Notes under the pieces: model-generated
Told to the model about the DNA's origin: nothing
Databases searched by the model: none
What the model saw: only the letters and a program-made list of their open reading frames with translations
NCBI GenBank assembly: GCA_963719225.1
Contig: CAVRAY010000001.1
Location: 1,536,001-1,600,000 of the forward strand
Origin: Thermoanaerobaculia bacterium
GTDB lineage: Bacteria > Acidobacteriota > Thermoanaerobaculia > UBA5066
Length of the DNA: 64,000 nt
Reading direction: 5' to 3'
Shown: positions 1-11,774 of the stretch, in pieces
Layout of the letters: every line of letters starts with the position of its first letter
Numbering within the stretch: position 1 is the stretch's first letter
Program-made: the position numbers and the translations under genes

Positions 1-1572
1 GACGTCCGTGTATACGGAATCGAAGGTTTCGCCCCAGACCGATCGGCCGTCCCCGACGTTGATCAAGCGGACCGAGACTCTGAGCCGGTCCTTGACGCGC
101 TGAAGGCTCCCTTCCACGACCGCGTCCACGCGTAGCGTACGCCCCAGGCGAACGGCGTCGTCGCGCTCTACGGAGTGCTGTAAGACGGCGCCCATGGGCC
201 GCAAGGCGATGCCCGGCACGCTGCTGAGCTTCGTGATGAGAGTGTCGGTCATCCCGAACTCGAGCACCTCGTCCCGGTCGGCCGCGACGAGCGGTTTGAA
301 CGGGAGAACCGCAAGGGTCGTCACGGACGGGAGGGAACGGACGGGCGCCGCGGCCGTTCCCGTCACAGCACGGTTCTCCCGGCGGGCCGAAAAGGAAAGC
401 CAAAGAGCGTAGCAACCAGCGGCAAGTGAGATCGAGGCGATGGCCGCCGCGACCACGCCTGCCCGATGCCGCCTCACGAACTTGCGCGCCCGGTAACCCG
501 CCGTGTCGGGGCGGGCGCGGACGAGTTTTCCCTCGAGGAACCGGCCGACGTCCTCGGAAAGTTCTTCGGCGGAACCGTATCGCAGCTCGGGCTCTTTCCG
601 CATCGCCTTCAGGACGATCGCCTCGAGATCGCGCGGGATCTTCGCCTCCGGAGCGGCGGCTGCCGGCCGCAGCGGCTCCTCGGTGAGGACGGCGTGGAGG
701 AGGGCGGCGTACTCGTCGCCGGTGGTCGTGCGGTAGGGCTTCTTGCCGGTCAGGAGCACGTAGAGGAGGACGCCGAGCGAATAGACGTCGGAAGCCGGCG
801 TGAGCGCGTCGCCCCGCACCTGCTCGGGGCTCGCAAAGGCGGGCGTGAGCGCGCGGTACCCGGTGGCGGTTCGGTCCGTCCCGGCCTCGGGCGTCAGCAG
901 GCGGGCGAGGCCGAAGTCGAGGAGTTTGGGAACACCCTCTTTCGTGACGAGGATGTTGGAGGGCTTCAGGTCCCGATGGATGACGAGATTGCGGTGCGCG
1001 TGCTCGACGGCCGAGCAGACGTCCCGAAAGAGCCGGAGTCTCGCCTCGAGCGGCGTCTTCTCCTCGCGGCAGTAGACGTCGATCGGGCGCCCCGAGACGA
1101 GCTCCATGATGAGGTACGGGCGGCCGTCCCCCATGGTCCCGCCGTCGAGGAGGGCTCCGATGTTCGGGTGGGCGAGCGAGGCGAGGATCCGGCGCTCCTC
1201 CCGAAAGCGCTCGAGGAAATAGGCCGCGTCGAGACCGAATCCGACGAGCTTGATCGCGACGTCTCTCTCGAACGCGCCGTCCGCGCGGCGCGCGAGATGG
1301 ACGGTCCCCATCCCGCCCCGCCCGATCTCTTCCACGAGCTCGTACGGCCCGATGCGCGTGCCTTCGGGGGGACTTTCGAGAGAGCGCATCGCCTCGTGAA
1401 CGTCCCTCTCGAGGGGGACCGACTCCGACTCGGAAAGGAGCGCCTCGACTTCCTCGCGCAGCGCGGCGTCGTCCCCGCAGGCCTCGCGAAGGAACGCTTC
1501 CCGATCTTCCCGCGGCATGTCGGCGGCTTCGCCGAAGATGGCCCGCGACCTCCGGAAGAGGTCCGGCGTCAC
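1..1572 (-). CDS. Ser/Thr protein kinase (Hanks type) with TM segment and TolB-like region; runs off window start
   Basis: Translated by hand from GTG at 1572, which overlaps the ECF stop (GTGA): MTPDLFRRSRAIFGEAADMPREDREAFLREACGDDAALREEVEALL, then GRGGMG, EERRILASLAHPNIGALLDGG, HRDLKPSNIL, KLLDFGLA. Absent from the ORF track because it is open at the window edge. Confidence 0.93.
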   Translation of the reverse strand, partial: MTPDLFRRSRAIFGEAADMPREDREAFLREACGDDAALREEVEALLSESESVPLERDVHEAMRSLESPPEGTRIGPYELVEEIGRGGMGTVHLARRADGAFERDVAIKLVGFGLDAAYFLERFREERRILASLAHPNIGALLDGGTMGDGRPYLIMELVSGRPIDVYCREEKTPLEARLRLFRDVCSAVEHAHRNLVIHRDLKPSNILVTKEGVPKLLDFGLARLLTPEAGTDRTATGYRALTPAFASPEQVRGDALTPASDVYSLGVLLYVLLTGKKPYRTTTGDEYAALLHAVLTEEPLRPAAAAPEAKIPRDLEAIVLKAMRKEPELRYGSAEELSEDVGRFLEGKLVRARPDTAGYRARKFVRRHRAGVVAAAIASISLAAGCYALWLSFSARRENRAVTGTAAAPVRSLPSVTTLAVLPFKPLVAADRDEVLEFGMTDTLITKLSSVPGIALRPMGAVLQHSVERDDAVRLGRTLRVDAVVEGSLQRVKDRLRVSVRLINVGDGRSVWGETFDSVYTDV

Positions 1573-2162
1573 GCCGTGGCGCCCCTCATCTGCCTCCTCA
1601 GCCACGCCTCGGCGTGCCGGTAGTCGCGGCTCGCGGTCGCGGAAGAGCAGCCGAGGACCTCGGCGGACTCCTGAACGTTGAGGCCCGCGAAGAGCCGAAG
1701 CTCCACGAGCCGGGCCTGCCTCTCGTCGAGGCCTGCGAGCTTCTTCAGGGCCTCGTCGAGCGCGAGGAGGTCGACCGTCCGGGGGTCCGCCGCGACTTCT
1801 GCGATCTCGATCGAGATACGACGGCCCTCGGGGGTTCGCTTGCCGGCGTCGCGTTTGCGCGCGTGGTCGACGAGGACCTCGCGCATCGCGCGGGCGGCCA
1901 CGCCGTAGAAGTGTCCCCGGTCCTTCCACGAAAGGCGCTGGTCCACGAGCTTGAGGTAGGCCTCGTGAACGAGGGCAGTCGGCTGGAGCGTGTGATTCGC
2001 GCGCTCCCGGCGCATCTGCGATGCCGCGAGATGGCGCAGCTGGCGATAGACGAGGGGTAGCAAGCGGTCGGGCGCCGTCGCGTCGCCCGACGACCAGGCG
2101 CGAAGGAGCGCCGTGACCTCATCGGGCTCGAGAGCGGCACCTCGGGGCAGGCGTACATCCAT
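1569..2162 (-). CDS. ECF sigma factor, TIGR02999-like (kinase-associated)
   Basis: EVTALLRAWSSGD...LLPLVY..LRHLA...HTLQPTALVHEAYLKL; region 4 LVELRLFAGLNVQESAEVLG; coupled to the downstream kinase. Confidence 0.92.
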   Translation of the reverse strand: MDVRLPRGAALEPDEVTALLRAWSSGDATAPDRLLPLVYRQLRHLAASQMRRERANHTLQPTALVHEAYLKLVDQRLSWKDRGHFYGVAARAMREVLVDHARKRDAGKRTPEGRRISIEIAEVAADPRTVDLLALDEALKKLAGLDERQARLVELRLFAGLNVQESAEVLGCSSATASRDYRHAEAWLRRQMRGATA

Positions 2163-2232: not shown

Positions 2233-4044
2233 CTATCTCGTCAAATCAGCTTTCAGCAGAACCCACCCCTTCGCCGCCGCGATCACGCGCGGGTCGCGAA
2301 AGGTCCTGTGGTCGAGCTCCTTGCACGGCAGGCACCAGTCCGCGTAGAAGTCGATCATGACGGGCCTGCCGGTCGATTTCGCCTCGGCGACGGCGGCGTC
2401 GGAATACGGCTGGAACACGAGCTCGGCCGAGGCCTTCCGCGGCATCGCGAAGGCCGCGCCCGCGGCGAGAAGCGCGACGGCGACCGCCGCCTTCACGGCC
2501 GCGAAGCCGCGCAGCCCGGCTCCGCTCCTCTCGAAGAAGAGGAACCACACGCCGCCCGCGAGGAGCGGAAGCGCGAGCCCGATCTCGTAGGTGCGCGTGG
2601 GCAGGAGCGGGCGAAGGAAGTACACGGCGAGCGCGACGAGCGCGAAGCCGAACACGCGCCGGACGGCCGTCATCCACTCCCCGGAGCGCGGGAGCGCCTT
2701 CAAGCTGCCGGAGGCGGTGCCGAGGACGAGATAGGGAAGTCCGAGACCCATCGCGAGCGTGAAGAAGAGGCCGAAGCCGAGAGGGGCCGAACCCCTCGCG
2801 GCGACGTAGGTGAGCAGTGACAGGACGAACGGCCCGATGCACGGCGCGGCCACGAAGCCCACGAAAAACCCCATCGTGAGCGCGCCGGCGACGCCTGCCT
2901 TCGAGCCCGTGCGGTCCGTGATGAAGTGAGGCGCCTGGATCTCGAAGAGGCCGAACATCGAAAGCGCGAGAGCGAGGACGATCGCCGCGATCCCGACGAG
3001 CACGGCGGGCTTCTGGAGCCATGCGCCGAAGAGGGAGCCCGAGAGCGCCGCGAAGACGCCGAGAGCTGAGTACGTGACGCTCATGCCGAGGACGTAGGCG
3101 AGCGCGAGGGAGAACGTGCCGCCTTTCTTCCCTTCCGACTGGCGGCTGAAAAAGCCGAGCGTGATCGGGATCAGCGGATACACGCAGGGGGTGAGGTTGA
3201 GCGCGAGGCCAGAGGCGAAGACGAGGACGAGAAGGATCGGCAGGGACTTGCCCGCGAGGCCGCCCCCTTCCGCCGCAGCCGGGCCGCCTCCGCTGAAGCG
3301 CGGCGCGAACGTCTCGGGCGGCTCGTAGCCCACGACGCGCGTGCCCGTCTCCTTCCCGTCCGGGCCGAGGAAGAGGAGCGTCGGGACGCCCTGGACGTTC
3401 CACTTCTCGCGCAGCGCGCCCGCGCCGAGCGGCGCGCCTCCCGCCGGGTCGTCGGCCGGGGAACCGCTTCCGCCTGAAGTCGCGCCGCCGGGTCCGCCGC
3501 CCGCGGCGGAAGCCGGAGCGCCGAACAGGTCCGCGTTCTTCGGCGCTGCCTCGGTGCCCGCCCTCGAAACGTCGATCGTGAGCGACGCCGTCAGCTCGGT
3601 CGGGGGCAGGCACTGGTTGTCGTTGCACGGCTGATACGAGATCACGGACGTGAGAGTTCGCGGGCCCGGCGCGGCCTTCGCGTCGACTGTGCCGGGCACG
3701 AGGAAGACGGTCCTTCCTTCATAAACGGCGAGCGGCTGATCGGAGAACGCGAATTTCGTCTCCTTGTGCTTCGGGTACCTCACGGCCGAGAACGCGAGGC
3801 CCGGCGCCGGTTTCAGCTTGACCTCCGTGGGGATGAGGAAGTCCTCCTTCGGCGTGTGGCTGTTCACGTGCCAGCCCGGCTTGATCTCGGCGACGACCGC
3901 GAGGCGGAACGGCTTTCCCGCGACGAGCCGATCCGCGTCGGCCGCGAGGCGCGGCGCCACGATCGTGTTCGAAGTCGGAACGGGCTGCGCGAGAGCCGGC
4001 GAGCCGGCGAGCACCAGAGCGGCAAAGGCGGGTCGGAAGGACAT
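2233..4044 (-). CDS. dsbD: DsbD-family thiol:disulfide interchange protein with rearranged thioredoxin domain
   Basis: Signal peptide MSFRPAFAALVLAGSPALAQ; N-domain PGWHVNS and QPCNDNQCLPP; TM domain LTPCVYP and AAPCIGP; C-terminal DFYADWCLPCKE. ATG at 4044 overlaps the upstream stop. Confidence 0.88.
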   Translation of the reverse strand: MSFRPAFAALVLAGSPALAQPVPTSNTIVAPRLAADADRLVAGKPFRLAVVAEIKPGWHVNSHTPKEDFLIPTEVKLKPAPGLAFSAVRYPKHKETKFAFSDQPLAVYEGRTVFLVPGTVDAKAAPGPRTLTSVISYQPCNDNQCLPPTELTASLTIDVSRAGTEAAPKNADLFGAPASAAGGGPGGATSGGSGSPADDPAGGAPLGAGALREKWNVQGVPTLLFLGPDGKETGTRVVGYEPPETFAPRFSGGGPAAAEGGGLAGKSLPILLVLVFASGLALNLTPCVYPLIPITLGFFSRQSEGKKGGTFSLALAYVLGMSVTYSALGVFAALSGSLFGAWLQKPAVLVGIAAIVLALALSMFGLFEIQAPHFITDRTGSKAGVAGALTMGFFVGFVAAPCIGPFVLSLLTYVAARGSAPLGFGLFFTLAMGLGLPYLVLGTASGSLKALPRSGEWMTAVRRVFGFALVALAVYFLRPLLPTRTYEIGLALPLLAGGVWFLFFERSGAGLRGFAAVKAAVAVALLAAGAAFAMPRKASAELVFQPYSDAAVAEAKSTGRPVMIDFYADWCLPCKELDHRTFRDPRVIAAAKGWVLLKADLTR

Positions 4045-4976
4045 CAACTCCCCGCCTTTCCCTGCAGCGCGTCGAGAAGCGCCTTCGCCTCTGCCGCGAA
4101 AGGTGAGTCCGGATGCGCCTTCAGAAATCCCTTGAGGCGCCAGGCCGCGAGGTCCTTGCGGCCGCGCGCGATCTCGACGTCGGCGCGGCGAAGCTCGGCG
4201 CGCTGTTTGAGAGTGGGATCCTGGGCGGTTGCGATGAGCGTGTCGAGGTGCGTGACGGCTTCGTCGAAACGGCCGGAGTCCATCTCGAGCGACGTCAGGT
4301 AGCCGAGCGACTGCTCGCGGATCGGGGCGGGAGACTTCGGGTCGCTCACGAGGCGCCGGAAGCGGGACTCGGCCTGCGCGCCGCCGCCGCGCTGATAGGT
4401 CTCGCGCGCCGCGTCGAAGACGAGCTGCAGATTCGAGGGCTCGGCCGATTCGGCGGCGAGGAGCTTCTTGTAGCCTGCCCAGCCGCGTTCGGCCTCGATG
4501 AACGCCTGCACCCAGCCGTGCTGCGTCGTCGGCCCTTCCTGCCGGCCGCATTCGAGAAGCTCCGGCGTGATGACGATCCAGGTCGGCCCGCCCCGGATCT
4601 TCAAACGACGTGCGAGGTCGGCGCCCTCCGCCGTCGAGACGTCCTCGTAGAGGGGCACCTTGTCCCGCGTGAACGCGTAGAAGGACGTGGACGGCGCGAC
4701 GAGCGCTTCCATCCGCTGGCATTGCCCGCAGTTCGGCTCCACGAAGAAAATCAGAATGCGCCCATCCTTGAGGCGCTTCGCGCCTTCAGTCGCCTCCGAA
4801 AGAGTCCGGGCCCAAAGAACGTCGAGGCCGGCCGCCCCGGGAAGAGCGCTCCCCTTGGCCGGGGGGGCCGCGGGGGAGATGGCGGACGGGACCGGCGTGG
4901 AGGCGCTGGAGGCGCCCTCCGCGGGCGGATTCGCCGGAGATATCTGCGCGAGCGCGATGAGAAGCAGTAAGAACAT
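4044..4976 (-). CDS. Exported thioredoxin-like (CGQC) plus TPR-repeat protein
   Basis: Hydrophobic N-terminus; ILIFFVEPNCGQCQRME; GGPTWIVITP; TPR-like C-terminus ending FLKAHPDSPFAAEAKALL; SD AAGGA upstream. Confidence 0.7.
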   Translation of the reverse strand: MFLLLLIALAQISPANPPAEGASSASTPVPSAISPAAPPAKGSALPGAAGLDVLWARTLSEATEGAKRLKDGRILIFFVEPNCGQCQRMEALVAPSTSFYAFTRDKVPLYEDVSTAEGADLARRLKIRGGPTWIVITPELLECGRQEGPTTQHGWVQAFIEAERGWAGYKKLLAAESAEPSNLQLVFDAARETYQRGGGAQAESRFRRLVSDPKSPAPIREQSLGYLTSLEMDSGRFDEAVTHLDTLIATAQDPTLKQRAELRRADVEIARGRKDLAAWRLKGFLKAHPDSPFAAEAKALLDALQGKAGS

Positions 4977-5086: not shown

Positions 5087-5162
5087 GCCCAGGTAGCTCA
5101 GTTGGTAGAGCACGCGCCTGAAAAGCGCGGTGTCGACGGTTCAATTCCGCCCCTGGGCACCA
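5087..5162 (+). tRNA. tRNA-Phe (GAA)
   Basis: Acceptor stem GCCCAGG/CCTGGGC; D-arm GCTC-AGTTGGTA-GAGC; anticodon arm CGCGC-CTGAAAA-GCGCG; T-loop TTCAATT (one A-C mismatch in the T stem); encoded CCA. Confidence 0.96.
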
Positions 5163-6070
5163 TCCTCCTTCTTCCAGTTGCCGATCACGCGCAGCGCGTG
5201 CGGATGCATCCGGAAGACGAGCGGGTCGGGATGTCCTGCCGAAAAGACGAGGTTGCCGTCGACGTGCGCCGTGAGCGGCCGGTCCGAGGCCAGAACGACC
5301 TCCCGGGCGCGTACGATCGTCACCCACGGCAGCCCCACGTGCGAGCCGTCCAGCGCTTTCGGGAGATGGCGCAGAGCCTCGAGCTTGCCGAGGTTGCCGA
5401 GACGGCACACGTCGAAGAGGCCGTCGTCGGGGCACGCCGCAGGAGCCAGGAGGAAGCCGCCCCCGCTGCGCGGACCGTTCGCGACCGCCGCGAGGAACGC
5501 CAGCCCCTCGAGAACGCGGCCGTCGATCGTCAGCGTCAGCTCGAAGTTCTCCCAGTCTTTCAGCACCGTGAAGACCGACCAGAGGTAAGCCGGAAAGCCC
5601 TTCAGGTAGCGCACCTTCGACGCGGCCTCCGCGACGGCGCCGTCGAACCCGAGGCCGACGCTGTTCGAGAAGAAGCGCCCGTTGACCTCTCCCACGTCGA
5701 GAATGCGTGTTTTTCCCTCGACGAGGACCCGCGCCGCATCCGCCAGATCCCCGGGCCTCAGGCCGAGCGCGAAGCCGTAGTCGTTGCCCGTGCCGTCGGG
5801 CATGAGGCCGAAGGCGGGGCGCTTCGCCTCCGGGATTCGCATGAGGCCGTTCACCGTCTCGTTTACCGTGCCATCGCCCCCGATCGCCACGACGACGTCC
5901 GCTCCGGGGTTCCCGGTCGCCTCGGCGAGATCGGCCGCGTGCCCGGGGCGCTCCGTTTCGAGGAACTCGCCTACGAGGCCGGCGGCGTCGAGAACGGAGC
6001 GGATGCGGTCCCGATCGCGCATCGCCCGGCCCTTCCCGGCCGCGGGATTGAAGAGAAAGACGTGCTTTAT
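5141..6070 (-). CDS. Diacylglycerol/lipid kinase family protein (YegS/BmrU-like)
   Basis: GGDGTVNETVNGL, PDGTGNDY, VGLGFD, NGPRSGGG, HVDG motifs. The conserved N-terminal FNPAAGKG motif lies upstream of the first ATG (6022), so the start is extended to ATA 6070 (uncertain). Confidence 0.88.
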   Translation of the reverse strand: MKHVFLFNPAAGKGRAMRDRDRIRSVLDAAGLVGEFLETERPGHAADLAEATGNPGADVVVAIGGDGTVNETVNGLMRIPEAKRPAFGLMPDGTGNDYGFALGLRPGDLADAARVLVEGKTRILDVGEVNGRFFSNSVGLGFDGAVAEAASKVRYLKGFPAYLWSVFTVLKDWENFELTLTIDGRVLEGLAFLAAVANGPRSGGGFLLAPAACPDDGLFDVCRLGNLGKLEALRHLPKALDGSHVGLPWVTIVRAREVVLASDRPLTAHVDGNLVFSAGHPDPLVFRMHPHALRVIGNWKKEDGAQGRN

Positions 6071-9753: not shown

Positions 9754-10751
<998 letters not shown>

Positions 10752-10755
<4 letters not shown>

Positions 10756-11774
10756 CGAGAGGCCTCCCGTTCCAGGGCGTAGAAGCGCTCGAGCAGCTCC
10801 ACCGCGCGGTGCGCGTAGCCCCAGCCCGCGTCGTACCACGAGAGAGTCTTGGAGACGTTCTCGCCGAGGGTCATCGTGGCCCGGGAGTCGAACGTGGAGG
10901 AGAACCTGCTCTGGGCGATGTCGCTCGAGACGATCGGCTCGGTCTCGTACGCCATGATTCCCTTCCACTTTGCCGCGATGGCCGTTCGGACCACCTCGTT
11001 GATCGCGGTGATGGTCACATTCTTCTCGTGCCAGCACACGAGGTCGACCGCCGAGCCGTTCGGAACGGGCACGTTCATGGCGGCGCCGACGACCTTCCCG
11101 GCAAGCTCGGGGATCAGCTCCTGCAGCATCCCGGGAGAGCGCGATTCCTGCGGAATGATGTTCTCGGCCGCGGCCCGGCCGCGGCGCATGTCTTCGGCCG
11201 GAACGTCCGCGAGCCGGTGCTGGTTCGTGTAGGAGTGCATCGTCGTGAAGAGCAGCTTCTTGATGCCGAACGCGTCGAGCAGGATCTTCGCGAGCGGCGC
11301 CACGCAGTGGACGGTGGAGGACGCGCTCGACACGATGCGGTGCTCTTTCCTGACGAGATGGTCGTTGATCCCGTTCACGACCGTCAGGTCGAGGGAATCC
11401 ACGGGCGGCTCGCAGAGAATGACGCGCTTCGCGCCTGCCTGAAGGTGCTTCTCCAGCTCGGCCCGGGTCAGCTTCCGCGCCGTCGCCTCGACGACCGTGT
11501 CGACGCCGAGCTCTTTCCAGGGTGGCGTCGCGCCCTTCTCCTGGTTCGTGAGGAGTGCGATCTGGCGCCCGACGACGTAGAGATGCCCTTCCCTGGCGCT
11601 GATCTCGTCCGGGAAGCGGCCGAAGAGGGTGTCGAACTTCAGCAGGTACTCGACCGACGCCGCATCGCCCAGGTCGCTGACCGCGCCGATCCGGATGTCG
11701 TCCCTCTTGTAGAGGATCCGGAAGACGTTTCGTCCGATTCTTCCGAAGCCCATGATGCCCACGGTCATGGTCAT
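10752..11774 (-). CDS. GAPDH-family paralog lacking the catalytic cysteine
   Basis: Colinear with GAPDH over its full length (GFGRIGR, YLLKFDT, RGRAAAENIIP, PIVSSDI), but the active-site motif reads SSASSTVHC. Confidence 0.9.

Follow-up and report, generated by a model that had tools for sequence, protein, structure and literature searches.

Domain order and neighbourhood of the dsbD gene

The window analysed here, a stretch of 64,000 nucleotides from a Thermoanaerobaculia genome, carries on its minus strand a dsbD gene (2233–4044; ATG at 4044, TAG stop at 2233–2235) whose 603-residue product has its domains in the order alpha, C-terminal half of gamma, beta, N-terminal half of gamma, stop. 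The protein opens with a likely signal peptide (residues 1–19, 3988–4044), as read from its basic start, hydrophobic core and A-x-A end, which is followed by the Ig-like alpha domain with C140 and C145 (residues 34–154, 3583–3945; Pfam DsbD_N, E-value 6.9e-9). A long Gly/Ala/Pro linker (residues 175–207, 3424–3522) joins alpha to the moved gamma segment, the C-terminal half of the thioredoxin (residues 210–250, 3295–3417), and a new tether recognized by its conserved spacing (residues 251–267, 3244–3294) connects the last gamma helix to TM1. The beta membrane domain (residues 268–535, 2440–3243; Pfam DsbD_TM, E-value 5.8e-50) shows eight long helices in the structural model and carries C287 and C402, and the chain closes with the N-terminal half of gamma (residues 541–603, 2236–2424). 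All of these features are encoded on the minus strand.

As expected for the DsbD class, the protein has an exported alpha domain of Ig-like type at its N-terminus, bearing a Cys pair (DsbD_N above its cut-off and a fold match to DsbD-alpha), an eight-helix membrane domain with two conserved Cys in TM1 and TM4 (C287 and C402), and the full set of gamma sequence features, namely CxxC, cis-Pro and D455/E468/Q488-type residues. What is absent is gamma as one continuous C-terminal domain; with gamma split around beta, this is a variant and not a typical member of the class. Its NCBIfam DsbD score (NF001419) is 269 against a cut-off of 330, below which two normal-order relatives also fall (310 and 321). 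The protein does not belong to the TsoB selenoproteins (NF045694), which have a rhodanese domain with selenocysteine and for which it scored 399 bits against 805, derived from the shared core, and the gene has no in-frame stop.

The same three modules, six Cys, eight-helix core and gamma active-site residues are found in the DsbD of E. coli and Neisseria (4ip1, 2fwe, 1vrs, 1jpe, 6dps), whereas here the second half of gamma comes ahead of the membrane domain, the chain stops once the third strand is complete, and alpha is joined to gamma rather than to TM1. ScsB proteins likewise combine alpha, an eight-TM beta and gamma, and our alpha model matched ScsB-alpha (6c29; Z 11.1, rmsd 3.0, 130 residues aligned of the 247 in 6c29) and DsbD-alpha (6dps; Z 10.2, rmsd 3.4, 116 aligned) with Z-scores tied within 1. 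However, in ScsB as described (Cho et al. 2012, PMC3322552) the order is normal and alpha is longer, with an additional subdomain, while alpha here extends approximately over residues 24–165 (~130 residues). CcdA (5vkv) shares a homologous membrane core (residues 271–476 of our protein) but consists of the membrane domain only, in contrast to the present protein with its alpha domain and both gamma halves.

Directly upstream of dsbD lies a gene for an exported-looking protein combining a CxxC thioredoxin with TPR (4044–4976, minus strand), whose stop overlaps the dsbD start by one base. In 29 of the 30 loci from the order, this Trx-TPR gene is a neighbour of dsbD, and it is syntenic with both the permuted and the normal form. 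The encoded protein is a candidate partner or substrate of DsbD; two more Trx-TPR proteins are encoded on contig C2. A tRNA-Phe gene (5087–5162, plus strand), present in most related loci, adjoins the Trx-TPR gene and is overlapped by the 3′ end of a DAGK-like frame (5141–6022, minus strand). Positions 1–2162 (minus strand) hold an ECF sigma factor (Pfam Sigma70_ECF) and then a Ser/Thr kinase, a pair which adjoins dsbD in only two of the ten loci from the window's genus (L001–L010), so that the DNA downstream of dsbD is variable. Elsewhere in the window, two tandem GAPDH-like frames (9754–11774, minus strand) differ in one motif, which is SNASCT in the downstream frame and SSASST in the upstream one; the upstream frame therefore seems to lack the catalytic cysteine.

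Identity, conservation and predicted fold of the gamma halves

A preliminary description of this DNA proposed that the protein stops halfway through a thioredoxin fold and that the missing half lies between the N-terminal domain and the first TM segment. Both observations hold: the C-terminus reads WCLPC...LKADLTR-stop, and the segment ALREKW...APRF corresponds to residues 210–250, exactly where it had been placed. The C-terminal fragment contains the WCLPC motif (C571/C574), D565, D578 and K598 and ends after the third strand, and the moved half contains a helix, the cis-Pro loop GVPT (P221), two strands and the last helix. The three Cys pairs listed in that description are likewise all present (C140/C145, C287/C402 and C571/C574), and the linkers around the displaced half, which it called Gly-rich, are Gly/Ala/Pro-rich and poorly conserved.

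Besides DsbD_N (residues 34–154) and DsbD_TM (270–480), the Pfam matches comprise the first part of a thioredoxin at residues 547–602 (Thioredoxin_7, model positions 5–61) and the last part at residues 211–248, the latter being the better of two stretches matched by Thioredoxin_2 (model positions 67–102 of 104). When aligned to E. coli cDsbD (4ip1), residues 551–602 correspond to positions 21–70 of the chain and residues 210–256 to positions 78–125, without overlap. Alone, the moved half is a weak match (i-E 0.45); its identity is settled by canonical close relatives, whose C-terminus has a near-identical segment. By the alignment to E. coli cDsbD, the two halves are complementary parts of one thioredoxin.

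Across ten loci of the genus, dN/dS was 0.126 in the moved half, 0.109 in the N-terminal half of gamma, 0.104 in the TM domain and 0.148 in alpha, as compared to 0.28 and 0.46 in the linkers; the higher value belongs to the long linker between alpha and the moved half, in which identity among 76 permuted homologs is 0.36 and pLDDT is <50. Purifying selection acts on the moved half as it does on the core of the protein. The six Cys, P221, D565, D578 and K598 show conservation of at least 90% among the 76 permuted homologs, with C571/C574, D565 and K598 invariant. D565, D578 and K598 are spaced like D455, E468 and Q488 of E. coli, residues described as tuning the gamma active site, with a Q488K variant that is fully active in vivo (PMC3961690). 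The geometry of the chain is similarly constrained, since the GVPT loop and a TM1 motif are separated by 58–65 residues in 92 permuted proteins, and the chain ends 33–34 residues past the first CxxC cysteine in 91 of these 92.

A full-length AlphaFold2 model built with 76 sequences yielded pLDDT values of 80–88 for the moved half and 74–91 for the other gamma half along with the eight long membrane helices, at a pTM of 0.49 and with moderate confidence for TM1–6, so that the arrangement of domains is not fixed by this model. A single-sequence model of residues 204–603 had a pLDDT of 50, and fold searches with the full model returned alpha-domain matches and helical bundles only, which carry no information on gamma. 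When residues 538–603 and 204–254 were supplied as separate chains, the prediction scored 0.63, compared to 0.08 for the best control; 116 of 157 solved complexes attained that mark, as did 2 of 215 mismatched pairs. The two-chain runs agreed in at least 96% of contacts, with partner pLDDT of at least 77, and the best contacts joined residues 561–566 to 221–228 and packed residues 581, 587 and 590 on 243–247, a pattern which we take to be the thioredoxin arrangement. The separate halves are thus predicted to form a thioredoxin fold, although this prediction may come from the memory of solved thioredoxins. It agrees with the reassembly of the two fragments into one Trx fold that was anticipated in the preliminary description.

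Proposed electron relay and alternative readings

Gamma is encoded in two pieces on either side of beta, and in the reading that we consider very probable these pieces would refold outside the cell as one permuted thioredoxin, with the protein likely serving a normal DsbD relay. All parts of the relay are present, and the ordinary DsbD relay is therefore the best reading. As described for DsbD, the cascade runs from cytoplasmic thioredoxin through beta, gamma and alpha to periplasmic substrates, with both periplasmic domains flanking beta and with eight membrane segments in DsbD and ScsB (PMC3322552). In the present protein, electrons would pass from cytoplasmic thioredoxin to C287/C402 in beta, to C571/C574 in gamma, to C140/C145 in alpha and on to the substrates. 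Because beta has eight helices, both gamma halves would be located on the outer side, where the strand bearing the CxxC motif would pair with the strand that follows the cis-Pro loop. Gamma would then be tied to beta at both TM1 (through ~17 residues) and TM8 (through ~10 residues), and alpha would hang from gamma, and not from TM1, on a flexible linker of 35–40 residues. Natural circular permutations are known in the thioredoxin-like fold (Qi and Grishin 2005, as cited in PMC3091736), in which, as here, part of the fold has moved from one terminus to the other; unlike in those cases, a 270-residue membrane domain here stands between the two parts.

The halves might instead pair between two copies of the protein, in which case the working unit would be a dimer or a chain. 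The two-chain prediction, in which the fragments bind without being linked, would suit such a domain swap and does not distinguish pairing in cis from pairing in trans. However, both tethers are short and narrowly conserved (the spacing of 58–65 residues), which suits closure within a single chain, and E. coli DsbD is generally regarded as a monomer, making a swap improbable. We attach even less credence to the idea that gamma is dead or repurposed and that a CcdA-like core feeds another thioredoxin, for example the Trx-TPR protein encoded by the upstream gene. While an exported-looking CxxC protein is encoded directly upstream with a one-base overlap, and stand-alone CcdA proteins are described as working in such a way (PMC3322552), the same upstream gene also adjoins dsbD genes of normal order, and the invariance of C571/C574, D565 and K598 and the strong purifying selection on both halves speak for a gamma domain in use.

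The gene in the window encodes the only alpha-beta-gamma DsbD of the genome, which also contains three Cytochrom_C_asm matches and 17 redoxin matches. In addition, a CcdA-like membrane protein that stands alone and has two Cys motifs (G000:C1:107996–108541, minus strand) could provide a second route of electron export and cover some of the DsbD function.

Distribution and origin of the permuted order

Homologs sharing the domain order were found among both proteins and genomes. The 120 closest proteins comprised 93 permuted ones (down to ~63% identity), 24 of normal order, two with the half before the TM domain and a broken tail, and one partly lacking the half, and the next 80 proteins, mostly more distant, were all of normal order. 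None of these 200 classified proteins, to which a third search added four more, had the half at both places as an intermediate would. One close relative, P0050, lacks the beginning of the moved half with its cis-Pro loop and strand; in this single sequence, the loss could reflect a deletion or an assembly error. Frameshifts occur in the 3′ part of the gene in a few members of the genus (G003, G017, P0047, P0049 and P0077) and may be either sequencing errors or decay.

At the genome level, we searched with a query spanning the junction. Within the family, defined by homolog labels as Thermoanaerobaculia and covered by 63 genomes, this query matched in one piece in 27 of the 29 genomes from the window's genus and in one genome from each of two other genera (29 of 63 genomes in all). 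The remaining seven genera gave two matches ~1.07 kb apart in 26 of 32 genomes, one partial match in three and none in three. Eighty named loci included four permuted ones, all labelled Thermoanaerobaculia, along with 67 of normal order and nine that were incomplete or ambiguous. Continuous junction matches were obtained in 13 of 201 genomes from the class and 4 of 301 from the phylum, all within the family, whereas two further phyla (those of a Desulfobacteraceae and a Melioribacteraceae genome), each sampled with 301 genomes, yielded none; these searches sampled genomes with a family-biased profile, which distant independent cases could escape. Three unpublished genomes (G019, G223 and G226) enter this study solely as class or phylum genomes in which no continuous match was obtained. 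Six borderline junction matches proved to be of normal order, and a search of the Atlas retrieved generic DsbD clusters only, with no match to the junction. Within the genomes searched, the permuted form is confined to part of one family.

That the junction was created during assembly, or is a broken allele that arose recently in this one genome, has next to no probability: although no sequencing run from the genome's own DNA was found (best word share 0.09), the same junction recurs in the 29 family genomes and 93 proteins, which come from several sources, the moved segment has no repeat elsewhere in the genome, third-position GC in the moved-half blocks (0.88–0.97) is like that of the remaining gene, and contigs of an unrelated run, which are short pieces of relatives none of which spans the whole gene, connect the moved half with both the linker and alpha (X1 records 5 and 6). 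Misassembly was rejected on the grounds that independent assemblies share the junction. The split-gamma DsbD is confirmed as a real, conserved and selected arrangement. Read-through of the stop codon was also rejected, the DNA past the stop being unrelated among nine permuted loci and holding no relic of the moved half. Our literature search, outside of which most subscription papers lay, returned no description of a permuted or split-gamma DsbD.

Permuted and normal dsbD genes are orthologs, since throughout the family and the order both follow the same Trx-TPR gene in the neighbourhood of tRNA-Phe, and normal order is ancestral, since the other families of the order have it. In normal-order relatives, the site of the cut is occupied by an S-P-E-V-type loop (P in 55 and V in 56 of 63), which also occurs in other families and is lost in permuted proteins. 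Because they keep this ancestral motif, the normal-order relatives are not revertants, and reversion is disfavoured as their source. In the ancestral gene of normal order, the cut would have fallen in the loop that follows the third strand, and it would probably have come about through an in-frame duplication of the beta-gamma part with a later deletion.

In a species tree of 17 genomes, based on two genes (rpoB and rpoC) and assembled bins, the permuted form is patchy: its three genera do not group together (AU p 2.5e-5), and a genus of normal order is placed as sister to that of the window (95/92). The permuted order has therefore spread sideways or arisen more than once, i.e., the permuted allele reached three genera either by in-place replacement or by repeated origin. 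The DsbD tree, for which rows were thinned at 88% identity from 142 to 38, leaving out frameshifted or truncated rows (P0047, P0049, P0050, P0077, L016, L026 and L029) and the duplicate L001, is poorly resolved and does not reject a single origin (AU p 0.085, 0.24, 0.12 and 0.43). A single origin was nevertheless never recovered in this tree, which has five changes and for which 0 of 200 bootstrap trees had one clade, while its starred branches force only one change. A new motif before the moved helix, common to the window's genus and genus g10, hints at a common origin in these two. The permuted protein P0082 groups with the normal-order P0085, P0113, P0093 and L023 (89/90), and its gamma halves group with permuted sequences; recombination between two alleles and an independent origin are both possible explanations. 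Permuted and normal alleles at the same locus in sister genera are 70–78% identical in the shared core.

A doubtful but possible scenario is that gamma was split around the membrane domain several times independently, the three non-sister genera being separate cases, with the clamping of TM1 and TM8 by the catalytic thioredoxin and the attachment of alpha to it being advantageous. If so, natural restraint of the termini would stabilize the transporter or keep gamma at the membrane, and the clamp would bound the travel of gamma in the relay from beta to gamma to alpha. When the termini of membrane proteins were restrained with split superfolder GFP, the melting temperature of DsbB is described as rising by more than 40 °C and that of two others by 8–9 °C (PMC11205269). 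As in that design, the two halves of a soluble fold would associate here and hold a helical membrane protein at both ends; unlike the engineered, inert GFP clamp, the one proposed here would be of natural origin and would double as the catalytic electron acceptor. The comparison is a working analogy only.

The protein is a rearranged version of a well-known enzyme, and no new chemistry is implied. PDB searches retrieved single DsbD domains, alpha-gamma complexes and CcdA, with no full-length DsbD among them, and the movement of gamma between the membrane cysteines and alpha is therefore not visible in those structures. Tying gamma to TM1 and TM8 by short linkers would limit this movement, in a manner testable through linker lengths, and by analogy with split-GFP restraint, the permuted DsbD may be a more rigid target for structure determination. 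With permuted and normal forms at the same locus, these bacteria would offer an unusually clean case of how a circular permutation arises and spreads.
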